DNA of 39,259 bases, filler included, from an uncultured Methanosarcinales archaeon (GTDB lineage: Archaea > Nanobdellota > Nanobdellia > Woesearchaeales > CAIVOO01): the NCBI GenBank assembly GCA_964485195.1. It is 12 parts of 12 records of this genome, joined end to end, with 100 filler letters (N's around TTAATTAATTAA, not from the genome) between each part and the next. Parts side by side here need not be neighbours in the genome. Positions count along the whole stretch, not along the records: positions 15,797 to 18,983 come from CAZAIK010000025.1; positions 19,084 to 22,103 come from CAZAIK010000026.1; 10 more parts are not named here. One strand, written 5' to 3'. The position numbers were made by a program, and so were the translations under genes. The notes below the pieces were generated by a model that saw only the letters and a program-made list of their open reading frames with translations, made no database searches and was not told the DNA's origin. Below, in pieces: positions 1 to 39,259 of the stretch. Each line of letters begins with the position of its first letter. The first letter of the stretch is position 1.

Positions 1-200
1 ATTATAGCGTTTAAAAAAGATACCCTTCTTGGTTATTTTATTGTTGATGTTAACAAAAAAAATTTAACTCAAGTTTCCCTTACCAGAGTTTATCAAAAAA
101 CTTTTCATACTGCCCTTATTCTCTCCGGCTAAAAAAAGAGAAATGCCTTGATATCCTGATCCGTTAATATTGGGTTCCAGGGGAGGTCGCCACGCTCATT

Positions 201-791
201 TCATTCGCTCGCAATAGAGGTGTCCCTTTGGGGAACGTCCCCCTGTTCTTTTTTATCGACCATTTCTAATTTTTTTATATATTCATTTTTTAGAAATTGA
301 TATTTTATTATATCACCTGCCATAACTATGTTGTTTAAGTTGTCTAAAAGATACAGCTTTATATTATCATTAGTAAATTCTTGTTTTATTACCAAGATGT
401 CATAATTTTCAAGTGATTTATCAATATAAAATTTTATATAACTATATGATTTTTCCTTTGTTATTAGGCAAAATACAATTTCACGAATACTACTTAGTGT
501 GAGATAAAAATCATATATCTCTTTCATCTCTTCTAAACACATTAAACAATCAAAATTCATTTCATAAACTAATTTGAAACTATTCTGTATTTTTTCTGAA
601 TCAAATGGCATATATCCGTTGCTTGTAAATCTTTTTATATTATTTGAAACATTAAATTCTTTACCTATTTGGGAATTTATTTTTTTTATAATGGGCTCTT
701 TTGATTGAATTTTTTTTACATGATGAACAATGAAGGGTATTGATATAAATAAAGCTATAATAAATATTGACTTGCATGTATTTCTTAACAT
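201..791 (-). CDS. Membrane-anchored thioredoxin-like (CxxC) hypothetical protein
   Basis: N-terminal hydrophobic segment, FDCLMC motif, and C-terminal KLYLLDNLNNIVMAGD resembling the last strands of Trx-like proteins found beside BF3164-family genes. Confidence 0.6.
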   Translation of the reverse strand: MLRNTCKSIFIIALFISIPFIVHHVKKIQSKEPIIKKINSQIGKEFNVSNNIKRFTSNGYMPFDSEKIQNSFKLVYEMNFDCLMCLEEMKEIYDFYLTLSSIREIVFCLITKEKSYSYIKFYIDKSLENYDILVIKQEFTNDNIKLYLLDNLNNIVMAGDIIKYQFLKNEYIKKLEMVDKKEQGDVPQRDTSIASE

Positions 792-894
792 AGGGATAAA
801 TTACAAGGAATTATTAATTTAGAAAAGTTTCCTTTTTGATAGAAGTGGTCTCTTTATTAAAATGCTGCTATTAATCTGGGTAGGATTTCTATAG

Positions 895-1086
895 TCATGG
901 ACAAGGACCAGATTCTAAATAATAGTAATTGAAAATATTGCCAGTAGGAGTAACACAGTAAGAATATCGTTGAAAACAGCACGTTCCAGTTGGAGGAGCC
1001 GATGAAATTACGTGGATTGTACAAATAAAAACTAAAACTACTAGAAATATTACTAGACTTATTGATTTTAATGTTTTTTTGCTCAT
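895..1086 (-). CDS. Small secreted cysteine-rich peptide (63 aa)
   Basis: RBS AAGGAGG; Sec-type signal peptide, then APPTGTCCFQRYSYCVTPTGNIFNYYYLESGPCP (CC-x6-C-x17-C); co-oriented in operon. Confidence 0.8.
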   Translation of the reverse strand: MSKKTLKSISLVIFLVVLVFICTIHVISSAPPTGTCCFQRYSYCVTPTGNIFNYYYLESGPCP

Positions 1087-1123
1087 TTTACCCTCCTTTT
1101 TCGATGGTTTTCTTCCTTTTAAT

Positions 1124-2269
1124 TTATATCCCTAAGTTAGTTTTTTCATCATAGTTAAATTTTAATATTTCACTTTCTGTTACTCCAAAAATTGTAGACC
1201 CATCATCAGATATAGTCATTTGATAAACTTCTTTATCTAATTCAATTTGTTCTATAATTATTCCGTTATTATCTAGAACATAGATTATATTGCTGGAATT
1301 AGGTTCCTTGTTTTCTTTATTGTATTGATACTTTCCCGAATATAGCAAAAACAATCTATCTAAATTTTTGCAATAACAAATATCAAGATATCCAAACCTG
1401 GTTTTTTTATTATAAGTCATTGTATGGTAATCTCCAACTGGTACAATTTCGTATTCAGGGAAAAATGAATCAGGACCATAATAAGTAGAAACTAGTTTTT
1501 CATTTTCAATATTATACTTCTCAATTATAGCTCCATACCTAGTTGCTATAAATATTTCTTTGGATTTCTCTTTGAAAATAAATTTTCCAATAAAACCATG
1601 TGAATGTTGAGGCCCAAATCTTTCTTTTTTTAAGATAACGGGAATTTTACCAATGCTTCTAATAAAATCACCATTCATATTATAGATTGATATTCTTCCT
1701 TTAAAAAACGCTCCAACTCCAATTATTTTCTCATCTGGTGTTATTAATAAATGAAAAGGAGCCCCGTTTCCATTTATTATTTCAATGATTTTATCTGGTT
1801 CAAATTTATCATTTAGAATTTCAATTATATTATACTTTTTTGATTTCCTTGTTGTAACATCGAATATCCAGAATACATTTTTATCTTTTGGATCGGGAAT
1901 TATTTCAGAGGCCCCAATAAATTCGTTTGGTCCTTGTCCTAAGCGGCCAAACGATTTTAACAATTTAGTTGATTTTAAACTAAATATTTTAATTATTTTG
2001 TCAGCCTTATGGTCAATGCACAATAGATAATTATTAATTATTGTGATAGAAACCGGAGCATAAATATCAATATTATTAAATACACTTGAATAAAGTTTTT
2101 CTATTTTATTTGATTTTATCAGTTTTTTATAATTGATGTAGTTGTATTTTTTTGATCTGTCCGAACACCCTGTGAATATGATTACAAAAATGATTAAACA
2201 TAGTAATGATTTTACTCCTAATTGTTCAATGAGACTTCCCATCCCTCTTCGGATGAAAATTGAGGTCAT
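1124..2269 (-). CDS. BF3164/TolB-like 6-bladed beta-propeller lipoprotein
   Basis: Lipobox IFTG-C; SFGRLGQGPNEF motif; YLDICY..RLFLLYSG and IYVLD..G blades; start moved to ATG 2269 behind RBS AAAGGAG. Confidence 0.8.
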   Translation of the reverse strand: MTSIFIRRGMGSLIEQLGVKSLLCLIIFVIIFTGCSDRSKKYNYINYKKLIKSNKIEKLYSSVFNNIDIYAPVSITIINNYLLCIDHKADKIIKIFSLKSTKLLKSFGRLGQGPNEFIGASEIIPDPKDKNVFWIFDVTTRKSKKYNIIEILNDKFEPDKIIEIINGNGAPFHLLITPDEKIIGVGAFFKGRISIYNMNGDFIRSIGKIPVILKKERFGPQHSHGFIGKFIFKEKSKEIFIATRYGAIIEKYNIENEKLVSTYYGPDSFFPEYEIVPVGDYHTMTYNKKTRFGYLDICYCKNLDRLFLLYSGKYQYNKENKEPNSSNIIYVLDNNGIIIEQIELDKEVYQMTISDDGSTIFGVTESEILKFNYDEKTNLGI

Positions 2270-2348
2270 CTTTCTCCTTTCAATCACATGCAATGAGATA
2301 TATTTTCTTGTTAATTTCAATCTATGTTTTTATCATTATATTATATAA

Positions 2349-2364
2349 AGCAAGATTTGTGCCA
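2349..2364 (-). promoter_or_regulatory. Sigma54 (-24/-12) promoter
   Basis: Minus strand reads TGGCACAAATCTTGCT, matching TGGCAC-N5-TTGCW; lies between the activator gene and the propeller operon, pointing into the operon. Confidence 0.85.
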
Positions 2365-2437
2365 CATCTCTATTAAACAGTATTTGCAAGAATCTAAACA
2401 AGTTAGATTTACCTCTTAAAAATAATAAGACTCCTTT

Positions 2438-2478
2438 AGTCGAGCTCTAATCCGACTTAAGCGAGCTAGGGCTCGACT
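2438..2478. promoter_or_regulatory. Inverted repeat (terminator of activator gene or upstream activator site)
   Basis: AGTCGAGCTCTA (2438-2449) / TAGGGCTCGACT (2467-2478), 11/12 complementary; directly after activator stop, about 75-115 bp upstream of the -24 element. Confidence 0.45.
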
Positions 2479-2479
2479 T

Positions 2480-3499
2480 TCAGCGAAGGTTGAAGTGCCT
2501 AATAATATCAATGAATTTCTTATAATCCTCCTTGCCCTCTCCCGCATTAAATAAAGATAAAAGCTCTTTATAGGAGCCTCCTGTTTTCTTAAGACCAAGG
2601 GAGATTATTTCTTTTACCTCTCTGCGGTTAAGCTCTCTCTTAAGAAAAGGCTTGTGAACTACCTCCCAGAAACTCTTACCGCCATGAACCATCTTATGGA
2701 AAAGGTTTGTAACCACATCTTCTTCTCTATCGATTGGAGGTTCAATCTTTATATCATCGGGCTTTATTATATTCCCTTCAGCCATAATAAAGGCTCTTAA
2801 TATAATGTTTTCAAGCTCCCTTATATTACCGGGAAATTCATAATCCAGGAGTTTTCTCATGGCCGGGGGAGACATCTTTTTACTCACCTTGTTCCTCTGC
2901 ACTGCCTCTCTTAATATCTCATCTACAAGCAAAGGAATATCCTCTCTCCTTTCTCTTATGGGAGGGATGTATATTTCAAATACATTAAGCCTGAAATATA
3001 AATCCTCCCGAAACCGGCCTGCTTTTACTTCCTCTTTTAAATCTTTGTTGGAAGCTGCTATTATTCTAACATCAATCTCTATCTCTTCTTCTCCTCCAAG
3101 ACGGAAAAACTTCCCTTTATCCAGAAATAGAAGAAGTTTTGACTGACACTCTGAACCGAGATCGGAGACTTCATCTAAAAAGAGAGTGCCCCCGGCTGCA
3201 ATCTCAATTTTCCCCACCTTCCTTCCCACTGCACCGGTAAAAGCACCTTTTTCATGACCGAAGAGTTCACTTTCAAAAAGCTCTTTTGGGATATTGATGC
3301 AGCCTTGTTGAAGAAAGCGCTTATTTTTCCTCCTGCTTAAACGATGGATACACTCTGAAGCCATAGATTTGCCTACTCCTGTCTCCCCGGCGATAAGAAC
3401 CGGGCAATCGTTGCGGGAAGCTTTATGAATCAGGCGGTTTACTTCCCTTATTGCTTGACTCTTTCCTGTCAAGCCATTTAAGGCCGGCTTCAGTACCAT
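2480..3499 (-). CDS. Sigma54-dependent activator (bEBP) lacking an N-terminal regulatory domain
   Basis: Walker A GETGVGKS, ESELFGHEKGAFTGA, GTLFLDEV, RFREDLYFRLN, FPGNIRELEN; starts directly at the AAA+ domain; non-Fis C-terminus SFWEVVHKPF..GGSYK. Confidence 0.93.
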   Translation of the reverse strand: MVLKPALNGLTGKSQAIREVNRLIHKASRNDCPVLIAGETGVGKSMASECIHRLSRRKNKRFLQQGCINIPKELFESELFGHEKGAFTGAVGRKVGKIEIAAGGTLFLDEVSDLGSECQSKLLLFLDKGKFFRLGGEEEIEIDVRIIAASNKDLKEEVKAGRFREDLYFRLNVFEIYIPPIRERREDIPLLVDEILREAVQRNKVSKKMSPPAMRKLLDYEFPGNIRELENIILRAFIMAEGNIIKPDDIKIEPPIDREEDVVTNLFHKMVHGGKSFWEVVHKPFLKRELNRREVKEIISLGLKKTGGSYKELLSLFNAGEGKEDYKKFIDIIRHFNLR

Positions 3500-3929
3500 C
3501 TTTTCCCCCCTCCAAGTTATTACACTTCTATAATATATTCACTCATTACTGTTATCAAGCTTTTTCCGGCTTATGGATCTGGAAATAGTTGCATTTTTTA
3601 TATTCTTTTTTCTTAGAAATTATTCTTTTATTATTTTCTCCAACCCGGGTATTTTCTTTTCTACTCGAATCTTTCCCTCAAAGAACCCGGGAGAATTTCT
3701 TATAAGTAAGAGTTCCACCCTCTCCCCTCCTTATCCACAGCTTTCCCTCTTTTCTCATCTATTTAGTCGGAGGAGGAAGGAATGATCGGGAAAATATTGG
3801 AAAAAAATTATATTACAGGAAAAATTATGATTCTTTTTCTCTAATAAAAAATTCCTTCCAAGTAGTAGGATTCAAAAAATATAAAACAACTTTCCCTCAG
3901 AAACACGATAAGGTAACATGATGATGTGA

Positions 3930-4001
3930 TGCACCTCCTGCGGGAGTCTAAAGTATGATAGACTACCCGCAGTGTCAAATAATTTAAATTATGGAGGTGC
4001 A
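3930..4001 (+). ncRNA. Structured non-coding leader of IS110 element (candidate bridge-RNA portion or RBS-sequestering hairpin)
   Basis: TGCACCTCC (3930-3938) pairs with GGAGGTGCA (3993-4001); nested stem TGCGGG-AGTCTA / TAGACT-A-CCCGCA. Confidence 0.4.
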
Positions 4002-4004
4002 CAA

Positions 4005-4147
4005 ATGGATTATATGGGAATTGACCATCATAAGCAATACTCACACATCACATTGATGGACGAGAAGGGAAAAAAGCTCAAGTCCGGCAGAGTGGCTAAC
4101 TATTACTCAGAGTTGGAGAAGTTTCTTGATGGAAAGAGAGAGGTTAA
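4005..4147 (+). mobile_element. IS110-family transposase, 5' fragment (cut by contig end)
   Basis: MDYMGIDHHKQYSHITLMDEKG..GRVAN fits the DEDD/RuvC-like N-terminus (GID motif); RBS GGAGG. Confidence 0.8.
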
Positions 4148-4247
4148 NNNNNNNNNNNNNNNNNNNNNNNNNNNNNNNNNNNNNNNNNNNNTTAATTAAT
4201 TAANNNNNNNNNNNNNNNNNNNNNNNNNNNNNNNNNNNNNNNNNNNN

Positions 4248-8340: not shown

Positions 8341-8443
8341 GNNNNNNNNNNNNNNNNNNNNNNNNNNNNNNNNNNNNNNNNNNNNTTAATTAATTAANNN
8401 NNNNNNNNNNNNNNNNNNNNNNNNNNNNNNNNNNNNNNNNNAG

Positions 8444-12299: not shown

Positions 12300-12485
12300 G
12301 ATATTCTGTTTTACAAGTTTAGGGTTGTAAAAATATTTAGATTTTAGTTTATTGTTAANNNNNNNNNNNNNNNNNNNNNNNNNNNNNNNNNNNNNNNNNN
12401 NNTTAATTAATTAANNNNNNNNNNNNNNNNNNNNNNNNNNNNNNNNNNNNNNNNNNNNACTTTACCAATGAATACCAACCACTTT

Positions 12486-12515
12486 AAAGGCGTCCTCTCT
12501 GGACGTCTTTTTTTT
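12486..12515 (+). terminator. Intrinsic terminator
   Basis: GGCGTCC-TCTCT-GGACGTC followed by T8. Confidence 0.7.
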
Positions 12516-12582
12516 ATCTTTTGTCTCTCATGCTTATACAATATTTATATATCCCTTATTGTTACTACTATTAAATAAGAAA

Positions 12583-13167
12583 ATGAAGTACAACAATTCA
12601 TATCAGATAAAATATTTAAATGCAGTTCCCTCATATTTGGAAAGCCAACCACCAAAGCCTTTTTATCATGCAGATTTAAAGAAGAATCTTGAAGGTGTTG
12701 TTCTTGATTTGCAACCCATGAAAGACAAAGGAATATTAGAAAGACTGTTTTCTGATAAAACCAAAACCCTTAAATCAACAGTAAAGGCTCTCCTTACAGA
12801 GATAGAACTCCGGGAAAATCTTAATTCTCATATACTCAACAATATTGACGATGATATATGCAGACAGCATACATATCTTGGTCATCTAAAAGTTCTGAAG
12901 CCTCAGTATTCACTTGAGTTGGCCAAAAATGTCTATAAACAAAAAATGCAGCTTGAAGGCAATGTGCTAGAACTCGAAGAGCAAAAAAGAAAGGAATATC
13001 TTGAATGCTGGCGAGATCTGATGTTCTTGAAAAAATACCTTCATTCAGCCTTAAAGGATTACTGGGATTTGGTTAAAAAACAAGAAATGCTTGGAGCTGA
13101 TTCTAATAGTTTCCTTGGGAATGAAATTTCTTATGAAGAAGGAAAAGGCCGGTTTGATCATGATTAA
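12583..13167 (+). CDS. Hypothetical helical protein
   Basis: About 195-aa ORF with coiled C-terminus (KRKEYLECWRDL); start uncertain. Confidence 0.7.
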   Translation: MKYNNSYQIKYLNAVPSYLESQPPKPFYHADLKKNLEGVVLDLQPMKDKGILERLFSDKTKTLKSTVKALLTEIELRENLNSHILNNIDDDICRQHTYLGHLKVLKPQYSLELAKNVYKQKMQLEGNVLELEEQKRKEYLECWRDLMFLKKYLHSALKDYWDLVKKQEMLGADSNSFLGNEISYEEGKGRFDHD

Positions 13168-13174
13168 CTCAGAA

Positions 13175-13387
13175 TTACTCTGAAATTGATTCAGCGTTTT
13201 CAATGACATTATTTGCGTCGCCGTAAAATAGCTTGCTTGCATTTAGAACCTCAATTGAAGTTATACTGCCATCTTTAGCAAACTCAAAAATAACACCATT
13301 TGGCAGTTCAATACTTTTCCAATATTCTTTATCAGATATTTCGATATTTAAAATATCTGCTTTTTTATCATACCATATTTCTTTCAT
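13175..13387 (-). CDS. DUF2283-family antitoxin-like protein
   Basis: MKEIWYDKKADILNI..SIELPNGVIFEFAKDGSITSIEVLNASK fits YD..AD.L.I / G....IE.L.AS. Confidence 0.8.
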   Translation of the reverse strand: MKEIWYDKKADILNIEISDKEYWKSIELPNGVIFEFAKDGSITSIEVLNASKLFYGDANNVIENAESISE

Positions 13388-13389
13388 TT

Positions 13390-13623
13390 TCAGTCTAGCC
13401 AAAAGGCTGTAATAACAAACAGCTTGTTATGTTTAATTTTGTATACGACCTTCAATATTCGGTCTAAAGGAGGGATTCGTGAAACAGCATTCAGTGCATC
13501 TTTCCAATGCTTATCTTTAAATTCCCGTGAATTGTTTAAGGCATATTCAATCATTTCATTCGAAATTGCCTTTTTCTTGGTCTTCTCTTTTTTAATTCAG
13601 TGTTTTGAATATTCGATTTTCAT
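13390..13623 (-). pseudogene. DUF4258/RelE-like toxin with in-frame TGA at codon 9
   Basis: MKIEYSKH*IKKEKTKKKAISNEMIEYALNNS..RILKVVYKIKHNKLFVITAFWLD; stop lies 2 nt before the DUF2283 start. Confidence 0.75.
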
Positions 13624-13789
13624 AGATCCTAATGAATCAGAGTTTTTAAATATTTTGTCATTGAGACTTTGACTAAATTATTGAGAAGAAAGTAGTAAAG
13701 CAAACGCCAATAGTTATTCCTTGAAAGATTTCGATTGCCATCTCCAATCCTTATACAACCATTAAAAATCCACCTCTCACTATTCTTGA

Positions 13790-15696
13790 ATGGTTCTTAG
13801 ATCTGATGAAATTGAAGATTTATGCAAAAAACTTAAGCCTGTCATAGGGGATCAGGCAGACAAATTATGGTATATGTATCTGGCAGAAGATGAAAAAGGC
13901 AAAAAAGACTTGGCCCTGAACATAGAAATAATTACTGAAAAAATCCTAAAGAAAAACGCCCTTGAGAAACAGGAAATTTTCCTTACCCCGCCATCCAAAA
14001 AGGATTCATTCGGGAGTTATTTACTCGGTGATGTTTTCTACAATCAGAAAAAACTTCAGCCTTTATGTTTGAAGCCTGATGATTTTATAAAACAGATAGG
14101 GATATTCGCTGTTACAGGTGAAGGAAAAACAAATCTTGCTTATCTCCTTTCTCTACAGCTTTTAAACTCCAAAATCCCATTTTTGGTAATAGACTGGAAA
14201 AGAAGTTGGAGAAATTTGCTGAGTTTAAATGATAACTTTCCTGAACTAAAAGATGTTCAGGTTTTCACAATAGGCAGGGATTCTTTGCCTTTTCAATGGA
14301 ATCCATTTAGGCCTCCTCCTGGAGCCAATCAGGATTCATGGATAAGCACTGTGGCAGAGGCTCTTGAAAAATCACACCTCTCAGGACTCGGAGTTGCATA
14401 TTACATAAATAAAATCTATCCAAAATTATTCAAGGAATTGAAAGGTGATTTTTTTCCGAATTTTTATGACGGCCTTAGAGAACTCAAAAACATAAAAGCG
14501 ATTCAGAGGGAGTTAAATTGGAAACAGTCAGCCTTGAGAATTTTTCAGAGTTTTATAGTTGGAAATACCTCTAAGGTTTTTAACACCAGAAATCCTATTA
14601 AACTCGAAGAACTGCTTAACAAGCCAGTAATCTTTGAGCTTGATCTTGAAATGCCAAAACCCCTGAGAGTATTTTTTTCTGAAATAATTCTCAGATGGAT
14701 TCATCTTTACAGGTTGAGCCAAGGAGAAACAGAATCCTTGAGACATGTTCTTTTTCTTGAAGAGGCTCATAATCTTTTTCTTAGTTCAGGATTTTTCAAA
14801 GACACCAATAGCCTTGAAAATGTCTATCGTGAAATAAGAGCCTTTGGCCAAGGGATTGTTTCTATTACGCAGCACCCGTCTGTATTGCCAATTTACCTGC
14901 TCGGCAACTGCCACACTCAAATTTATTTTGGCTTGCAACATGCAGATGACATAAAAACTGCGAGAAAATCCTTATTCTTAAAATATGATGAAGAAGTATA
15001 TCCCAGCCTTTTAAATGTGGGTGAGTGTATTGTTAAAATCAAAAACAGGATTGATCCATGTCTGGTAAAAACTCCTCTCGTTCCTGTTAAAAAAGGTTTG
15101 GTAAATGATGATTGGCTTAAAGTAAATACCCCTATGAATGCCATGGTAAAAACCCCCGGTTATTTATTATCTGTCCACGGTAACAAAAACCTTAATTACC
15201 CCCCAAGTTTACCACAGGATAATATAGAAAAAGAAAAAGGCAAACACCCTCAGTTGATTAAAACTCAGGAACAGCCTCATCACAGGCTTCTTATTGATAT
15301 TTTTTTAAACCCGTTTTCTGGCATTACTCAAAGGTATAATCAATTAAAATTCAATCCAAAATACGGAAACAAATTTAAGAACCTGCTTATTTCAGAAGGA
15401 TGCATTCAGCCAAGAAAAATAATTACCAGTAAAGGCTGGATTTCTCTTTTTGACCTTACCCGAAAAGGCAAAACAGTATTAAGAGATTTGGGGTATACTT
15501 TCAACGACACAAGCGAGGGTATTATCCACAAATTCTGGAAAGACAAGATAAGTAAGTATTACATGAATAAAGGGCTGGATGTACGAGTTGAGGAATATCA
15601 CATTAATGGAAGACCTGATATTATTGTCCAGAAAGATGATAAAATTATTGCTCTGGAAATCGAGACAGGAAAATCAGATTTCATTAAAAACATCCA
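13790..15696 (+). CDS. HerA/VirB4-like P-loop ATPase with C-terminal wHTH and PD-(D/E)xK-like region (3' truncated)
   Basis: Walker A AVTGEGKT, VIDWK, WNPF, Walker B FLEEAH, REIRAFGQG, TQHPS; C-terminal RPDIIV..ALEIETGKS. Confidence 0.8.
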
Positions 15697-15796
15697 NNNN
15701 NNNNNNNNNNNNNNNNNNNNNNNNNNNNNNNNNNNNNNNNTTAATTAATTAANNNNNNNNNNNNNNNNNNNNNNNNNNNNNNNNNNNNNNNNNNNN

Positions 15797-15851
15797 TTAG
15801 CCAGTTATATCAAAGTGTAAACAAATTTTTGTTTACAGTTTACAGTTTACA
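15797..15851. repeat. 55-bp sequence identical to 36672-36726 (end of a collapsed multicopy element)
   Basis: Exact match at two contig starts; contains palindrome TGTAAACAAA-TT-TTTGTTTACA and (GTTTACA)x3. Confidence 0.9.
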
Positions 15852-15896
15852 TTTTATGCTGTTCTGATATTTTAGAGAGAGTGAATCATTTTTTTC

Positions 15897-17063
15897 TCAA
15901 TCCGCGATGTATCCAGATCTATGCAGCACTCTGTAATGCTTCCCTTTGATCTTCACTTTGATCTTCTTAAATTTTCCGTCCGATTTATAATCTTTGGGCT
16001 GGTAGTAGATGAGGTAATAATTTTCAGAAGCTTCCATGGCCTTTTGAAAAGAAAATTCCGGATTCCTTGAACTTATGGTAAGGCCTCCCGTGGCATCAGC
16101 CATTTCAGAGAAACCACTGAATATATCTCCCCGGGTATCCACCCAATTTCTACCAAAAAATTCGGTCTGCTCCTGTCCACTCTCAGCAAGAGGAGCTTCT
16201 GTGATATATAGAAAATGACAGGTCACGTTTGCATCTGAAAAAGCTTCTCTGATTTCATCTGAATTAAACGACAAGTCCGGAAAGAGCTCGAATTGATCAT
16301 ACTGGGATAAACCATCAGGGACCGGAATTAAATTCTTCTGATAAAAAAAGAACACATGCTTCTGCCCTTCAATCTGGCTTAAAAACTCACCAAATTGAGA
16401 TATTTTCTGCTTGTCAATATACATATATGACTTGAGTTTTCGAAAAATCTCCAGAAGCATTTGAGTTTTTAGGTCCAAATCCGAAAAAGCTGTGTGCTGC
16501 AAATTTCTGAATTCTCGGAGCATATTATGGTAAGCGGCGCTTCCAAGAGTTGCATCTTTTCTCACTTTTTTCTTCAGCTCTTTGGCTATTTCTTCCCTGG
16601 ATATTTTCTCTAAAGCCTCCTCATTGAAGCGGTAATTTTTCTGAGGGGTCGTGACGATCAAAGAGTCTCCGGGCATAAGAACTTGGTTAAAAAAGTTATC
16701 AATCACTTCCCCCACCCGCGGCATATATTCCACAAGCTCAAACATCAGGATAAAAGTCCTCTTTTGGATAGAAGTGATGGGTTTGATCGGTTGAATCGAT
16801 TCGTCTTTTAATGAAGTGTCCACCAGCTCTCGCTCAATTTTCTTTTCCTTGACCAAATAAACCGCTTCAATTTCCTGGAGCTCCCCGTCCTCATACAGCT
16901 CAAAATCATGGATATCCAGATCATTGATAAACTCATTCCCTTTAAAGACCCTTACATCCACTTCAATGAGTATGGCTCTGGCTTCCTCTTGAATTTGCTG
17001 GCCAAAAGTCAAAAGAATCAAAAAAAGAGCAGCAATAACAAAAATTATTTTTCTAATCTCTAT
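15897..17063 (-). CDS. Secreted VWA-domain protein (acidobacterial VWFA-like)
   Basis: EVDVRVFKG..FINDL...DFELYEDG..QEI; MADATGG; ENYYLIYYQP..DGKFKKIKVK..HRSGY; signal peptide extends in frame to ATA at 17063. Confidence 0.85.
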   Translation of the reverse strand: MEIRKIIFVIAALFLILLTFGQQIQEEARAILIEVDVRVFKGNEFINDLDIHDFELYEDGELQEIEAVYLVKEKKIERELVDTSLKDESIQPIKPITSIQKRTFILMFELVEYMPRVGEVIDNFFNQVLMPGDSLIVTTPQKNYRFNEEALEKISREEIAKELKKKVRKDATLGSAAYHNMLREFRNLQHTAFSDLDLKTQMLLEIFRKLKSYMYIDKQKISQFGEFLSQIEGQKHVFFFYQKNLIPVPDGLSQYDQFELFPDLSFNSDEIREAFSDANVTCHFLYITEAPLAESGQEQTEFFGRNWVDTRGDIFSGFSEMADATGGLTISSRNPEFSFQKAMEASENYYLIYYQPKDYKSDGKFKKIKVKIKGKHYRVLHRSGYIAD

Positions 17064-17195
17064 GTCCCCATGTCCCCCTTATTTTTTCTCCATCTTGTTT
17101 CTAATATATTACAAGAAAAAAATAAAGTCAAACAAATTTGCATCTAAGCAAATACTGAATCTTTTAGTGAGTTCTAAGGTAAAATTTTTTTATTT

Positions 17196-17236
17196 GGGAG
17201 AGATAAGGGGGGACGAAGCCCTCCCTTATCTCCCTC
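17196..17236 (-). terminator. Stable hairpin 3' of the precursor gene
   Basis: Minus strand GAGATAAGGGAGGGC-TTCG-TCCCCCCTTATCTC with UUCG loop; no U-tract on this strand. Confidence 0.55.
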
Positions 17237-17249
17237 TTTTTGCCTTGTT

Positions 17250-17441
17250 TTAAGGTTCGATATTCAAGCCAATATTATATTGTTCTTGTGTCCAGGCGCT
17301 ACATGCACATCCACATGTGTGATTATCGTAACCAGCCATTTGTCCATCACCAAAACTTTGTGTTCCACAATAGCAAGTGCAAAATCCCAAAATAGTGTTA
17401 TTCCTGCCATCATATTTTGTCCCATCATTAATAGTATCCAT
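17250..17441 (-). CDS. Putative RiPP precursor with two CxCxC motifs (63 aa)
   Basis: RBS AAGGAGGAG; MDTINDGTKYDGRNNTILGFCTCYCGTQSFGDGQMAGYDNHTCGCACSAWTQEQYNIGLNIEP; directly downstream of rSAM gene; alternative TTG start 17507. Confidence 0.75.
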   Translation of the reverse strand: MDTINDGTKYDGRNNTILGFCTCYCGTQSFGDGQMAGYDNHTCGCACSAWTQEQYNIGLNIEP

Positions 17442-17568
17442 CTGACTCCTCCTTTCTTTATTATCATTCATGACCGCTAATAATCCCAAATAATATTCTT
17501 TAAACAATCAATTTACCTCACCCCCCTATACAAACCAAAGACTTTTCAAATTATTGATAGTTATATCG

Positions 17569-18981
17569 TTAACCCAATTCCATTTCGTATAAATGATCCA
17601 AACCATTTTTCCTTTTTTCTGTTAAAAAGCAGTAATATTTAAAGTCATCCAGTTTCGATTTGTTTGAGAGTTTACAGTATTTTCTTTTCATTTCGAGATT
17701 TATTTCATCGTTTGTAAAAGCATGCTGATAACATAGATTGCACAATCTGGCCATCCAACATTTTGAACAATCTTTTATGCTTTTTTCAGCATACTCATGT
17801 AGATAAATTTCCATTATTACATCAAAGTTCAATCCTTCATAAATATTGCCGAGTTTGGGTGCTTTATTGATCCTCTCACATAATTCAATATCACCTCTTG
17901 CAGTGACATATAATTTTCTTATGCCTGGTATACAGCAGCCGTTTAATGGGATTTTTTTCATTGGAATATCAAAAACAGGTCTTTTAAATATAATCGCTAG
18001 AGTCTTATTTAAAACATTTGCAAGTGGGTGAAATTCTTTTTCTTTAATATAATTTTTATAATATTCTTCCTCAATCCATTCTGTTAAACTATTATCATGG
18101 GGATGGTTGCTAGAAATGTAATGGGCAGGAATAGTCCCTGTTGATGGATATGTGATATTGATTCTGATATCATCATGTATGCATTCATTAGATGTAATGA
18201 AATTGGCGATTCTTTCTACTCTTTCTATACTGTATGGCGGCGCATATACCATGCTAAGTCCCAATTTATGCAATTTGTTTTCAAAGGCTTTGTGTAGAAT
18301 GCAGAGTCCTCTGAGTGTTCGTTTGAAACTTCCCTTATTTTTTATATCTTTCCTCCATTCATCATGAATATCTTCAGGCCCGTCTATACTAACCAAGACA
18401 GAGAAATTTTCAGAAGACAAAAAGGATGCTATGTCATCATCTACCAATGTGGCATTTGTTGTAACAGCAAAGGTTATTTCTTTATTAATGTGAGCTTTTG
18501 CATAATCAACGATTCTTTTCATTAGGCTAAATTTTAATAATGGTTCTCCTCCATAAAAAGAAATCCCTACTGTATCCTTTTTTTCAGAATGGTCTTTTAA
18601 ATAATCTATGGCTTTTCTAGCGATTTCTTCTGTCATGTCGACATTTGCATAATTTCTCTTTCCTTTGAAAAAATCATTATAGATGCAGTACCCACATCTA
18701 AGATTACATCTTTCTGTTAGTTCTAACTGGATCATTGCTAAGTAATTGTTCACTTTGTCTATAACTGAATCAACATGATCAATGATCTTAAAACCTTCAA
18801 TTTTTGTAATTTTTAATATGTGTTCTTTTTTTATTGCCTGCTCTAATGATGAGAAGATTTTCATTGAAATAGAATCCGAATGACTTGATGAAAATTTATC
18901 AACCGCATCATTAATATCCATAATCATCAGGTCATTCAATAATTCGAACTCCGGATTTTCACATTTCACTATCTTGTTAGT
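17569..18981 (-). CDS. Radical SAM/SPASM peptide maturase (CcpM-like; 5' truncated)
   Basis: CNLRCGYC, FYGGEPLL, TTNATL, VSIDGP; SPASM region CCIPGIRKLYV..G...CERI..CSKCW..LCNLC..C; frame open to contig edge (TNKIVKC). Confidence 0.9.
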   Translation of the reverse strand, partial: TNKIVKCENPEFELLNDLMIMDINDAVDKFSSSHSDSISMKIFSSLEQAIKKEHILKITKIEGFKIIDHVDSVIDKVNNYLAMIQLELTERCNLRCGYCIYNDFFKGKRNYANVDMTEEIARKAIDYLKDHSEKKDTVGISFYGGEPLLKFSLMKRIVDYAKAHINKEITFAVTTNATLVDDDIASFLSSENFSVLVSIDGPEDIHDEWRKDIKNKGSFKRTLRGLCILHKAFENKLHKLGLSMVYAPPYSIERVERIANFITSNECIHDDIRINITYPSTGTIPAHYISSNHPHDNSLTEWIEEEYYKNYIKEKEFHPLANVLNKTLAIIFKRPVFDIPMKKIPLNGCCIPGIRKLYVTARGDIELCERINKAPKLGNIYEGLNFDVIMEIYLHEYAEKSIKDCSKCWMARLCNLCYQHAFTNDEINLEMKRKYCKLSNKSKLDDFKYYCFLTEKRKNGLDHLYEMELG

Positions 18982-19085
18982 TCNNNNNNNNNNNNNNNNN
19001 NNNNNNNNNNNNNNNNNNNNNNNNNNNTTAATTAATTAANNNNNNNNNNNNNNNNNNNNNNNNNNNNNNNNNNNNNNNNNNNNTA

Positions 19086-36671: not shown

Positions 36672-36726
36672 TTAGCCAGTTATATCAAAGTGTAAACAAA
36701 TTTTTGTTTACAGTTTACAGTTTACA
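36672..36726. repeat. 55-bp sequence identical to 15797-15851
   Basis: Exact match; here the palindrome extends as ATCAAAGTGTAAAC / GTTTACACTTTGAT to 36733. Confidence 0.9.
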
Positions 36727-37464
36727 CTTTGATTCTTACAAAAATAGGTCATTGTAAAAGGCAAGCATAAAGCTAAAAACTATCAAATTTTCTCACTCAA
36801 GAAAGAATTAGTCATGGAGTAAAACGGGGAAATGGGTCTTGTGCCTCTGTATTTTAATGATAAAATACCTTGACAGGCTTAAATAAAAACACAAAAATAT
36901 TTAAAACCCGGACTAGAGAAAAGGAACCGTTCGAAAATGACTTCTTGAGTTATCCATACTTATATTCCTGATATTCCTGATATCTCTTCTTGGCACTCAT
37001 CCGACTTACGCATCAAATAAAGGCATGTTCTGGGGCCAGGTTCTTGACTCAGAGCAAAATCCTTTAAAGGGATTAAAGGATAAGAATTTGGTTTTTCTAT
37101 TGATGATGTTCACTCCATTTCACCAAATTTCCGCCCTCCAAACGACTTTATCACCAATAATACACACAAAAACACGTTTGGTCAAAAAGAAACCCACAGA
37201 AAATAGAGAACATCAGAAAATCAGTCTTAGTAGGGCTTAGAAAGAAGGGAAGGCGGCAGCCGCGCCAGGCGAGAGTCAGTTTTAAGATCAAGTGGTAGGC
37301 AAGTCTTATATTTCCATGTGCTCCGTTCTTGAAATGATCTCGTCCTGAAGGTCTTTATTCAGGTCTCAGAAATAATCGCTCTGAGACTGCGGTCAAATAT
37401 GATGACTACCGCTTTTTCACTGTAAGCGCTGAGGTTAAAGGCTGAGGCTAAGGGCCGGTCCGAT

Positions 37465-37635
37465 ATGTATAAACTGGAAGTGTTTGATGAAGACGGTTTA
37501 CTCCTTCAGGAAATCCCTCTCAATCACTCCTGTCACGGCATCCGAGCCAGTGGAGACCAGCTTCTGCTCTTAGATTATAGTGAGAGCAAGGTTTATCAGT
37601 ATGAGATTGTTGGAAGAGAGAAAATTTTAAATTGA
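37465..37635 (+). pseudogene. C-terminal remnant of a 6-bladed beta-propeller gene
   Basis: MYKLEVFDEDGLLLQEIPL..GIRASGDQLLLLD..KVYQYEIV resembles a last propeller blade. Confidence 0.55.
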
Positions 37636-37659
37636 CATAGATGCCATAATTGCTATAAT
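37632..37659 (+). promoter_or_regulatory. Consensus sigma70 promoter of abiE operon
   Basis: TTGACA-16 bp-TATAAT with TGn extension. Confidence 0.75.
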
Positions 37660-37671
37660 ATGATAGTAAAT

Positions 37672-38265
37672 ATGGAACCTATAACAAAAGCTAAAGCAAT
37701 AAAGATTCTGCATCAAAAAAAAGTCACATTTTTTGACGTCACTGACGCCAGTAAAATATTCGAAACAAAAAAAATTAAGACTCTTTATGAACTCTTGCAA
37801 AGACTGGAAAAAGAGGGAGTGATTCAGAGAATCATTAAGGGCCGATACCATTTTTCTTTAAGGGAGTATAATGATTTTGAATTAGCTAACTTCTTGGTCA
37901 ATCCCTCCTATATTTCTTTAGAAAGCGCTCTTTCTTTCTATGGGATTTTATCTCAATTTCCCTACACAGTTACATCAATCACTCCCTTGAAACCGAGACG
38001 CATCACTTATCAAGAAAAAGAATATGAATTCTCTCATTTAGAGAGTAAGTATTTTTTTGGTTTTGTAAAAAAGCATAAATTCTTAATAGCAACGCCTGAA
38101 AAGGCTTTATTGGATGAGCTTTATTTTATGGCAAAAAAATTAAGAAGAGTACATGTGAGAGACCTAAACTTTGATCCTGTTGATAAAAAAAAGTTTGAAG
38201 AATTGTATAAAAAGCATAAATTTATTCCTTTACGGAAATTAGTCAAAAAATTAGGAATATGTTAG
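37672..38265 (+). CDS. abiEi: Type IV TA antitoxin, AbiEi family
   Basis: N-terminal wHTH (RLEKEG.I.RI.KG.Y), PSYISLESALSFYG, IATPEKALLD; start moved to 37672 because ATG 37660 abuts the -10 box. Confidence 0.9.
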   Translation: MEPITKAKAIKILHQKKVTFFDVTDASKIFETKKIKTLYELLQRLEKEGVIQRIIKGRYHFSLREYNDFELANFLVNPSYISLESALSFYGILSQFPYTVTSITPLKPRRITYQEKEYEFSHLESKYFFGFVKKHKFLIATPEKALLDELYFMAKKLRRVHVRDLNFDPVDKKKFEELYKKHKFIPLRKLVKKLGIC

Positions 38266-39023
38266 ATAAAGATTCAGCTCAAGACTTAAGCCGGGAATTA
38301 AGAATAGATTTATTTACTGTTTATCGCGAATATCTTCAACTATTATTTCTCAAGTATTTTTACAATCAAAAAGAGAGCCAAAAAATTTATTTTAAAGGGG
38401 GGACAGCTTTAAGATTTCTATATGATTCTTTTAGATTTTCCGAAGATTTAGATTTCACAAGCCTTATCTCTGAAAAGAGACTGAAAGGATTGATTGATAA
38501 ATCCCTTCGGAAGCTAAACAAAGAGGCAACAGGAATTAGTTTTAAGAGAATGGAGTCGATTGGGGAATCGTTTTCTGGAAAAATTCGACTTGAACTCTCT
38601 GAGCTTAAATTCCCTCTAACCATAAGATTGGATTTTTCCATGAGAGAAAAACCTGTTCTTGGGGGCGAATCCTCTTATATTGAAACCAATTTTCCAGTGG
38701 GTCCCTATCCATTTGTATCTCATTTAAAAATTGAAGAGCTGCTGGCAGAGAAAGTAAGAGCCATTTTAACAAGAAGCAGGGGGAGGGATATTTTTGATAT
38801 CTGGTTTTTATTCTCGAAAAAAGTTCTTCTTGATTGGAAATTAGTAAACAATAAAATGGCTCTTTATAAAAAGAAAACGGGCAAAAAAGAGTTAATTAAG
38901 GCTGTTGAAGAGTTTGATCAAGATGAAATTAAAAATGATCTAACAAGATTCTTGCCTGCCAGTCACCGCCACCTCATCAATGAGATAAAGGCGTTGACAT
39001 TAAAAAAATTAAAAGAGAATTAA
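38259..39023 (+). CDS. abiEii: Type IV TA toxin, AbiEii nucleotidyltransferase
   Basis: FKGGTALR, RFSEDLDF, AEKVRA..R..GRDIFD; overlaps abiEi. Confidence 0.92.
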   Translation: MLDKDSAQDLSRELRIDLFTVYREYLQLLFLKYFYNQKESQKIYFKGGTALRFLYDSFRFSEDLDFTSLISEKRLKGLIDKSLRKLNKEATGISFKRMESIGESFSGKIRLELSELKFPLTIRLDFSMREKPVLGGESSYIETNFPVGPYPFVSHLKIEELLAEKVRAILTRSRGRDIFDIWFLFSKKVLLDWKLVNNKMALYKKKTGKKELIKAVEEFDQDEIKNDLTRFLPASHRHLINEIKALTLKKLKEN

Positions 39024-39041
39024 TAAGCTGTTTTGACAGAT

Positions 39042-39170
39042 GAAAATTACTATCTCATCTACTACAAGCCTAAAGACTATAAGACAGATGGGAAATTCAA
39101 GAAGATCAAGGTGAAGATCAAAGAGAAAAATTACAAGGTATTTCACCGCGCCGGCTACATTGCGGATTGA
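39042..39170 (+). pseudogene. C-terminal remnant of a VWA-domain gene
   Basis: ENYYLIYYKPKDYKTDGKFKKIKVKIKEKNYKVFHRAGYIAD, 35/42 identical to the C-terminus of the protein at 15897-17063. Confidence 0.85.
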
Positions 39171-39259
39171 TACTTTTGTGCTTTTTTTATCAATATGATA
39201 GAGTCTTTTTCTCTTTCCGCATCATCAAAATATACAAATGATGTTTTCAAATGATATTC

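Follow-up and report, generated by a model that had tools for sequence, protein, structure and literature searches.

Which peptide is made by a radical S-adenosylmethionine (rSAM) maturase and the small Cys-rich open reading frame (ORF) next to it in an archaeal genome bin, and does this gene pair belong to the archaeon at all? The two genes were found in a window of 39,259 nucleotides, the whole stretch of DNA analysed here, in which small contigs of genome G000 (C21 to C32) are chained by artificial linkers consisting of N44, TTAATTAATTAA, and N44 (positions 4148-4247, 8342-8441, 12359-12458, 15697-15796, 18984-19083 and further). ORFs that seem to enter X or N in the window are artefacts of these linkers. 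G000 comprises 1.13 Mb in 32 contigs, and the gene pair sits on the minus strand of contig C25 (window 15797-18983, 3187 bp). On this strand, the maturase ORF with its open 5' end is followed by a spacer of 127 nt, a 63-codon ORF, a hairpin, and a VWA-like gene. We consider it probable that the pair is the two-gene core of a RumC-type cassette for a ribosomally produced, post-translationally modified peptide (RiPP), and that the product is a RumC-like double-hairpin sactipeptide with at most three thioethers per hairpin. The features of the pair are:

17569..18981, minus strand: radical SAM/SPASM peptide maturase, 470 codons plus stop, 5' end cut by the contig end
18685..18708, minus strand: CX3CX2C radical-SAM cluster motif (C92, C96, C99), by sequence, invariant in 30 homologues
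17674..17937, minus strand: SPASM-type Cys region (C349/350, C368, C405, C408, C414, C417, C436), by conserved Cys columns
17250..17441, minus strand: precursor peptide of 63 aa, by ORF, NF035954 match and profile family
17447..17453, minus strand: Shine-Dalgarno sequence AGGAGGA, five nt 5' of the precursor ATG, by sequence
about 17198..17234, minus strand: GA-rich/CU-rich hairpin, 16 nt 3' of the precursor stop, by folding

Everything that the first-pass annotation had observed in 17196..18983, namely a maturase with a CX3CX2C motif, a 63-residue peptide with two CxCxC clusters and no double-glycine leader, a strong ribosome binding site (RBS) and a 3' UUCG hairpin, was found on the minus strand of C25; the features are real, but the end coordinate is merely that of the contig. 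The precursor reads MDTINDGTKYDGRNNTILGF-CTCYC-GTQSFGDGQMAGYDNHT-CGCAC-SAWTQEQYNIGLNIEP, with Cys residues at positions 21, 23, 25 and 43, 45, 47. A leader of about 19 or 20 residues, whose boundary is a guess, precedes the CTCYC cluster (21-25), which is followed by a linker of 17 residues, the CGCAC cluster (43-47), and a tail of 16 residues ending in Pro. No GG occurs before the core; the window precursor has ILG-F.

A word-index search with the peptide returned the window's own protein alone. The neighbourhoods of related maturases were therefore collected and a profile was built. Among the matches listed, which are mostly relatives with 25-42% identity to the window maturase, at least 161 loci contain a maturase match, and 108 are eligible, as the C-terminus is matched and at least 450 bp follow downstream. 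An ORF was scored if it had 40-110 aa, contained two Cys clusters and started within 350 nt 3' of the maturase. Among these loci, such an ORF lies directly downstream in 7 of 10 cases if the maturase identity is at least 36%, in 18 of 35 at 31-36%, in 2 of 53 at 27-31%, and in 0 of 10 below 27%. At an identity of 31% or more, the feature is thus present in 25 of 45 eligible loci, compared to a background of 71 among 5258 other small ORFs of the same loci (1.35%). The strict tandem pattern CxCxC..CxCxC was found in 8 of the 108 loci and in one of the 5258 background ORFs. The proposed pairing of maturase and precursor is supported by these counts; homologous maturases with at least 31% identity do not generally lack similar neighbouring peptides.

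The query profile A3 comprised 13 peptides from the neighbours of related maturases and was compared with 1.84 billion representatives clustered at 50% identity. It yielded 48 matches at E <= 1e-3, seven of which duplicate rows already in the query alignment. They consist of 43 peptides of 57-78 aa, one peptide of 148 aa, and four long multi-stretch proteins, which were taken as false. For the further analysis, 43 small peptides were examined, i.e. 42 small matches and the 63-aa form from the window, which replaced its own match of 73 aa (P0001). The tandem CxCxC..CxCxC pattern occurs in 38 of these 43 peptides, and 31 contain exactly six Cys residues. The medians are position 19 for the first Cys, 18 residues for the linker and 17 residues for the tail. 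The nearest relative of the window precursor is P0138 (E 9e-17), with 40% identity along the entire 63 residues. Over 42 members, C23, C43 and C47 are invariant and C21, C25 and C45 are conserved to at least 90%. Besides the Cys residues, a Gly is found at position -6 before cluster 2 (25 of 38) and GG at -2 and -1 (20 and 24 of 38, respectively); in the tail, 15 of 38 peptides have a Glu at +6 and 24 of 38 an Ala or Thr at +12. G37 and E53 of the window precursor are retained among these positions. In 38 linkers, Gly occurs 135 times and Ala 83 times, more often than any other residue. A C-terminal Pro is present in 17 of the 43 peptides, including that of the window, which is far above expectation for a C-terminal residue; it may serve as tail protection or as a recognition signal.

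NF035954, which describes the putative sactipeptides of the CA_C0660 family, is the only curated precursor model touching the window peptide (25.2 bits, E 1.2e-5, residues 20-58; the cut-off of 60 was missed), and it matches 21 of 42 family members at E <= 0.01. TIGR04067, the model of the Apre_1838 precursor (cut-off 45 bits), did not match the window peptide, and TIGR04149, the GG-leader precursor of Bacteroidales, was touched by one of 42 members. A profile-profile comparison of the HHalign type, in which the 42 members were aligned with 19 Bacillota precursors of the RumC/CA_C0660/Apre_1838 type, gave a probability of 96.2% (E 2.7e-9, 52 columns); leaders and both Cys clusters coincide. 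Judged by these alignments, the peptide is a real, conserved gene and a distant relative of the RumC, CA_C0660 and Apre_1838 precursors.

For the maturase, 1705 homologues were found with a top identity of 78%; its full-length homologues have 514 aa and are 78-79% identical. Among the NCBIfam models, that of RumMC (NF035951) ranks first with 354.9 bits (E 6.8e-106, profile positions 38-507 of 510), followed by CcpM with 251.9, lachnocin with 166, PapB with 155.5 and TIGR04148 with 152 bits. The corresponding cut-offs are 720 bits for RumMC, 500 for CcpM (TIGR04068), 550 for lachnocin, 340 for PapB and 300 for TIGR04148. The RumMC equivalog cut-off was reached neither by the window maturase nor by its full-length homologue P0002 (381.5 bits). 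Of 42 related maturases, one (L008, 835.7 bits) passed it, and the adjoining peptide is a true RumC (104.5 bits with the precursor model NF035950). Likewise, a single one (L113, 555 bits) passed the CcpM cut-off. Among the remaining 40, RumMC is the best, albeit sub-threshold, match of 39 (335-560 bits), and L092 matches CcpM best. In a quick maximum-likelihood search with 70 rows, the window maturase fell into a clade of 31 rows (Shimodaira-Hasegawa-like approximate likelihood-ratio test, 91), which consists of metagenomic sequences and sequences labelled Aminicenantes or Acidobacteriota. A Bacillota clade with 28 rows, among them the true RumMC, is sister to it; CcpM proper (L113) lies outside both clades. 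Of the seven precursors known for the 31-row clade, five are of the tandem CxCxC type; those of L006 and L196 differ. Based on these scores, the nearest curated maturase family is RumMC. The earlier comparison with CcpM-like and GG-Bacteroidales maturases needs correction; TIGR04068 (251.9/500) and TIGR04148 (152/300) scored lower than RumMC, and all three remained below their cut-offs.

The domain structure of the enzyme is that of rSAM/SPASM peptide maturases. The residues C92, C96 and C99 form the CX3CX2C motif within CNLRCGYC, and Pfam reports Radical_SAM with 73.4 bits and Fer4_12 with 36.5 bits, which confirms the rSAM maturase of the first-pass annotation. The C-terminal part contains C349/C350, G363, C368, C405, C408, C414, C417 and C436, which corresponds to the seven-Cys SPASM pattern; these residues are invariant or nearly so in an alignment of 30 homologues. 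The Cys-rich SPASM region noted earlier is therefore found by Cys pattern and alignments, but not by the hidden Markov model (HMM), since the Pfam SPASM model gave a sub-threshold score of 11.6 bits (cut-off 21.5). Because of this low score, the assignment rests on the Cys pattern, on the full-length alignment with NCBIfam rSAM/SPASM families, and on a structural model of P0002.

This AlphaFold2 model of full-length P0002, which is 79% identical to the window maturase, was computed from an alignment of 41 rows and has a mean predicted local distance difference test (pLDDT) value of 91.8. It begins with a module of three strands and three helices at residues 29-97 (strands 29-33, 38-42, 48-51; helices 53-97) that resembles a RiPP recognition element (RRE). 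Next come the rSAM barrel and, at the C-terminus, a helical domain rich in Cys. A search of the maturase with PqqD/RRE HMMs gave no match. The window ORF (18981..17569) is open at the contig end 18983 and lacks about 44 N-terminal residues compared to its homologues; it begins at residue 45 of the full-length form, and the contig end alone accounts for the loss of two RRE strands. In Foldseek, the top rank went to CteB (5WHY/5WGG; roughly 500 columns aligned, E 6e-21 to 2e-20), followed by anSME, ChlB, TigE, SuiB and SkfB. CteB is also the best PDB match by sequence (E 2.2e-24), with its C-terminal domain aligning as a second stretch.

What the maturase does to the precursor is suggested by systems that have been studied at the bench. 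In RumC, Cys22/24 are bridged to residues 31/35 and Cys41/45 to 53/61, which results in two independent hairpin domains with the inner bridge formed first; the leader (residues 1-20) is removed by trypsin (PMC6779426). StsA (CxCxCx4GxGxG) contains three nested Cys-Gly sactionines, namely Cys6-Gly11, Cys4-Gly13 and Cys2-Gly15 (PMC10288494). The window precursor combines the two modules of RumC with the CxCxC of StsA, and a double hairpin with at most three alpha-thioethers per module is therefore favoured.

The gene pair, its conservation, the homology of enzyme and precursor to the RumC system and the fold class of the enzyme are results of the analysis; for the chemistry, the bridges (their number and location), the cleavage site and the activity, we infer the following course. 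The maturase would bind the N-terminal leader of the 63-aa precursor (M-x-x-[IV]-[KN]-x-G...) through the RRE domain at its own N-terminus. The radical-SAM core would then take hydrogen from acceptor residues in linker and tail, and the Cys residues of each CxCxC would be joined to those carbons as thioethers, with the rSAM cluster and two auxiliary SPASM clusters being involved. The product would most likely contain two nested hairpins, one after the other, in the manner of RumC; following the example of StsA, each could carry as many as three bridges from sulfur to the alpha carbon, which gives a maximum of six. The leader would be cleaved by a protease, and export could be accomplished by a half-size ABC exporter without peptidase domain, encoded off the contig. 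A secreted antimicrobial or competition peptide is the likely role. A two-module product with Cys-derived cross-links, as envisaged by the first-pass annotation, is thus the best reading, but the six cross-links are only an upper bound that is drawn by analogy.

Three other explanations of the pair have to be weighed. The idea that the small ORF is no substrate, but a chance ORF or a metal-binding Cys-rich peptide, with the maturase acting elsewhere, is close to refuted: the empty word-index search and the fact that no Pfam family matches the peptide speak for it, whereas the strong RBS, the homologue P0138, the 48 profile matches, the conserved position directly after related maturases (against the 1.35% background) and the homology to RumC-type precursors speak against it. 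An enzyme of the same class could also join the Cys residues to beta or gamma side-chain carbons of Asp, Asn, Glu, Gln or Thr, and the product would then be a ranthipeptide. The nearest solved structure by sequence and fold belongs to CteB, the SCIFF/thermocellin maturase, PapB is a clear match to the window maturase (155 bits), and D, E, N, Q and T abound in linker and tail. However, RumMC, a proven alpha-thioether enzyme (PMC6779426), beats PapB by about 200 bits, precursors of the RumC type are homologues of this precursor family, and Gly and Ala prevail in the linkers, as in the Cys-Gly sactionines of StsA. A ranthipeptide is therefore unlikely.

Partial bridging, in which for example two Cys residues per hairpin are used and the others are free, form disulfides or bind metal, appears improbable as well. 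It would agree with RumC, which uses two Cys residues per hairpin and forms disulfides in E. coli if unmodified (PMC6779426), and with superfamily relatives that carry four to nine Cys residues in varied patterns. On the other hand, all three Cys residues of each cluster are invariant or conserved to at least 90% over the 42 members, and all three of the CxCxC in StsA are bridged (PMC10288494).

Several observations weigh against the RumC-like double-hairpin sactipeptide itself. No curated cut-off was reached (RumMC 355/720, CcpM 252/500, precursor NF035954 25/60). The RumC precursor model NF035950 (cut-off 40 bits) had no match to the window peptide at E <= 0.01; the L008 peptide served as a control. 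Compared with the PDB, the precursor profile gave no significant match (best E 0.44, retinoschisin), and no solved sactipeptide was matched. At 20 of the 45 related loci, a two-cluster ORF was not seen directly downstream; as the downstream side alone was scored, these misses are not evidence of absence. The locus set excludes the contexts of the closest maturases, P0002-P0005 (61-78% identical), and the window copy of the maturase is incomplete. CteB, the closest solved enzyme, forms a thioether that is not on the alpha carbon, and homology therefore does not fix the carbon that is attacked. The conserved linker and tail positions (Gly at -6, 25/38; Glu at +6, 15/38) are only candidates for acceptors.

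How new is such a cassette? The closest known system is that of RumC from Ruminococcus gnavus (RumC1-5, RumMC1/2; NF035950/NF035951). It provides the top curated maturase match and homologous precursors, both precursors comprise 63 aa, of which about 20 form the leader, the clusters at 21-25 and 43-47 of the window peptide correspond to positions 22/24 and 41/45 of RumC, and two hairpin domains would be expected by analogy. In contrast to RumC, the window pair misses the cut-offs (355/720; NF035950 no match), its maturase belongs to a separate clade, and each cluster contains three Cys residues instead of two. The leader motif of the environmental sequences is MxxVKxG compared to MKxVNPxGR in Bacillota, the tail often ends in Pro, and the host is likely a Gram-negative-type environmental bacterium. 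CA_C0660 (NF035954) and Apre_1838/CcpM (TIGR04067/TIGR04068), which are predicted sactipeptide systems of Clostridia, have the same architecture as the window pair. In supplement 1 of PMC10288494 these families are listed as class 'RumMC' in group 3 of the precursor sequence similarity network (SSN), and some members, such as the Bacillota precursors in rows 2546 and 2559 and the peptide of L101, contain CxCxC..CxCxC. The window pair differs in scoring below the respective cut-offs (25/60 for the peptide, 252/500 for CcpM).

The resemblance to other systems is more distant. In StsA/StsB from Streptomyces sparsogenes and BlaA/BlaB, one CxCxC module is converted to three nested sulfur-to-alpha-carbon bridges a few positions downstream (PMC10288494), and the window linker is Gly-rich, too. 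StsA is taken as a mechanistic analogue only: StsB is MftC-like and has a separate RRE protein, StsA consists of one module with a GxGxG acceptor motif, and the window linker reads C-x5-GxG-x3-G and not CxCxCx4GxGxG. CteB/CteA (SCIFF, thermocellin; 5WGG/5WHY) has the three-part build that the model of P0002 suggests (RRE, rSAM core, SPASM domain), and CteB forms thioethers on a Cys-rich peptide, but the identity is only 18-19%, and the SCIFF maturase model TIGR03974 gave 121 bits (cut-off 425). The GG-leader system of Bacteroidales (TIGR04148/TIGR04149) differs by its score (152/300) and by the GG leader, which the window precursor lacks.

It follows that the kind of system is known, namely a RumC-type thioether RiPP with an rSAM/SPASM enzyme, and that the new element is the environmental branch variant. 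To speak of a new RiPP, as the first-pass annotation did, is an overstatement, because the precursor is distantly related to those of RumC, CA_C0660 and Apre_1838 and tandem CxCxC precursors are already listed as 'RumMC' in the supplement of PMC10288494; the environmental branch, however, is uncatalogued. The strings GGCGCGC, GGCGCSC, GGCGCAC, TCGCAC and TCGCSC had no match in supplement 1 of that paper, its PDF supplement apart. In the literature covered, which does not extend to subscription journals, no paper on the environmental branch was found, nor a bench study of six-Cys RumC-like peptides or of the CA_C0660, Apre_1838 or CcpM families; a search with CcpM, TIGR04068 and other family names gave unrelated papers only. 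RumC1 is a well-studied lead for sactipeptide antibiotics, whose double-hairpin fold is called unique among sactipeptides (PMC6779426, PMC8172795). The environmental branch, with 48 profile matches and three Cys residues per hairpin, extends the RumC architecture well beyond gut Bacillota. If all six Cys residues were bridged, the scaffold would be more tightly stapled than any of the sactipeptides characterised in the papers cited here. The window precursor and its maturase are a simple target for co-expression.

The second question concerns the organism. The remaining features of C25 are:

15897..17057, minus strand: secreted VWA-like protein (TIGR03436, sub-threshold)
15816..15851, minus strand: three TGTAAAC direct repeats, then AAAAATTT and inverted GTTTACA, by motif and by match to contig C36 of genome G061

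G061 is a bacterium with a genome of 3.5 Mb and three paralogous maturases, which are 57%, 49% and 79% identical to that of the window; the last value covers the first 170 residues, where the contig of this paralogue ends. Two of the three maturases are followed by precursors, so that the order of maturase and precursor is repeated. Precursor 1 has 64 aa, the pattern CSCWC..C..CGCGC and an "AGMAG" linker motif as in the window; precursor 2 has 57 aa and the pattern CxC..CxCxC. In one of the cassettes, a half-size ABC exporter without C39 domain lies directly upstream, which supports the earlier suggestion that transporter and protease are located off the contig. Exporters of the same kind occur near the cassettes in L085 and L007. 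A protease was not identified in the cassette contexts examined. The exporter gene on C36 of G061 (L195 8500-10224) appears to be split into two ORFs, one with the transmembrane domain and the Walker A part and one with the rest of the ATPase; the cause is either a frameshift or an assembly error. Proteins with an NHL/six-bladed beta-propeller and TonB_C-domain proteins recur beside cassettes of the clade (L006 2643-5332, L007 2839-3969, L196 3165-4307 and 7768-8826, L085 7825-9678). At L006, a second radical-SAM gene follows the propeller gene.

As judged from sequence comparisons, C25 is likely a bacterial contig that was mis-binned into the archaeal genome G000. Compared with G061, its DNA identity amounts to 76% in the VWA gene and to 82% in the 5' part of the maturase, and the gene order is shared. 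The GC content of C25 is 35% compared to 43% for G000, and its tetranucleotide distance of 0.375 exceeds the 95th percentile (0.326) of equal-sized pieces of large contigs. In 60 relatives of G000, no close homologue was found (best 28% identity, E 5e-25); within the order of G061, 4 of 151 genomes had a match at E <= 1e-60. Ribosomal protein S8e is present in G000, and no sigma70 or sigma54 domain was found there, whereas G061 has 28 sigma70 matches and rpoN. Mis-binning is likely because of these differences in homologues, GC content, tetranucleotides and sigma factors and because of the DNA identity to G061; moreover, both ends of C25 fall within repeats of a G061-type cassette. The same findings argue against a cassette that belongs to a DPANN-type archaeon through horizontal transfer. 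In favour of such a transfer, C25 is part of a bin with an estimated contamination of 0.56%, and homologues elsewhere are labelled as archaeal metagenome-assembled genomes (Hodarchaeota, Thermoplasmata, Methanosarcinales); on balance, we regard it as very unlikely. A bacterial relative of G061 that bears sigma54 is the most likely producer, rather than the archaeon of the bin. The uncultured lineage mentioned in the first-pass annotation is therefore probably not that of G000, the archaeon under which C25 is filed.

Other contigs of the window show similar signs. C32 (window 36672-39259, GC 34.8%) has the same TGTAAAC palindrome at position 20 and carries an AbiEi/AbiEii-like pair, an NHL/beta-propeller fragment and a C-terminal VWA fragment, all of which resemble genes of G061; probably it was mis-binned as well and stems from the same bacterium as C25. 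C21, C24, C29 and C30 (window 1-4147, 12459-15696 and others) have a GC content of 0.33-0.38 compared to 0.43 and a high tetranucleotide distance, and may be foreign, too. Note that short contigs of the archaeal bin G000 are probably bacterial.

Some of the related maturases are mosaics. Residues 1-95 of P0011, P0012 and P0014 are 87-91% identical to P0002, whereas the cores (126-514) share 42-45%; the N-terminal part of ordinary homologues is 27-45% identical to that of P0002. The trees built from the two parts are in conflict: with residues 1-95, P0002 and P0012 are united in a clade of no more than 6 of 25 tips (support 0.93), whereas with the cores no clade smaller than the entire tree (26 of 26 tips) holds both. 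The mosaic maturases comprise P0002, P0011, P0012 and P0014 as well as L185/L196 and L087/L197 of G061. With their shared RRE and promoter module and divergent cores, they would represent a natural experiment on the recombination of leader recognition and core chemistry.

In G061, the similarity of the 5' module reaches about 215 nt upstream of the start codon. A sigma54-like motif, TGGCAT-N5-TTGCT, lies 53-54 nt before the ATG in all three G061 paralogues (background 0.009 per kb); near the start codon it is absent from 19 other loci, with one distant match in L092. It is therefore a feature of the lineage and not of the family. Further upstream of this motif, G061 has TGTAAAC repeats and an inverted copy. 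The TGTAAAC element of C25 (15816-15851) matches the sequence about 190-220 nt upstream of the C36 maturase of G061 with 93% identity over 56 nt; it looks like a putative activator-binding site upstream of a further cassette beyond the contig end. A tRNA was ruled out as an explanation of the 50-nt repeat at the contig end. C25 and contig C3 of G061 both break inside the shared 5' module, which fits an assembly collapse at a repeat; more cassettes would therefore exist in the source organism. It is conceivable, though doubtful, that Acidobacteriota/Aminicenantes-like bacteria diversify a whole arsenal of bacteriocins, to which this cassette would belong. Co-resident cassettes with distinct cores and six-Cys precursors would then keep a common 5' module (sigma54 promoter, repeat element and RRE of about 95 residues) nearly identical by recombination among paralogues that are otherwise distant, and the products would be the first double-hairpin sactipeptides with three bridges per hairpin and six sactionines.

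The hairpin 3' of the precursor gene (-25.5 kcal/mol, z -3.07; 0 of 200 shuffles fold as well) has a UUCG apex and is followed on the coding strand by AAAUAAAAAAAUUUU, without a clean U-tract. A consensus scan called it a terminator on the plus strand only, and terminator-like sites were not in excess (2 found, 1.7 expected in shuffles). Of seven loci that were folded, six have a comparable hairpin (z <= -2.8) behind the precursor gene, the exception being L085 (z -0.25). The hairpin is likely a transcript end or a stabiliser. Promoter-like sites in the contig are no commoner than in shuffles (12 compared to 10.9, standard deviation 3.7), and the site TTGACT-17-TATATT before the VWA gene was therefore not relied on as a promoter.

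The VWA-like gene is probably a transcription unit of its own, and whether it is part of the system is uncertain. It is located 3' of the precursor in two of the three cassettes seen (window and contig C63 of G061) and 2.7 kb downstream on C36 of G061; it was not found at L005, L006, L007, L085, L096 and L103, and G061 has at least eight further DNA matches to it away from maturases. The gene has 374 codons and encodes a secreted protein (TIGR03436, 75.3 bits; cut-off 81.25). Its start seems to be an ATT codon (17055-17057, minus strand), and the in-frame residues upstream, IRKIIFVIAALF, complete a signal peptide; the homologue from G061 has a Met at the position of the ATT codon.

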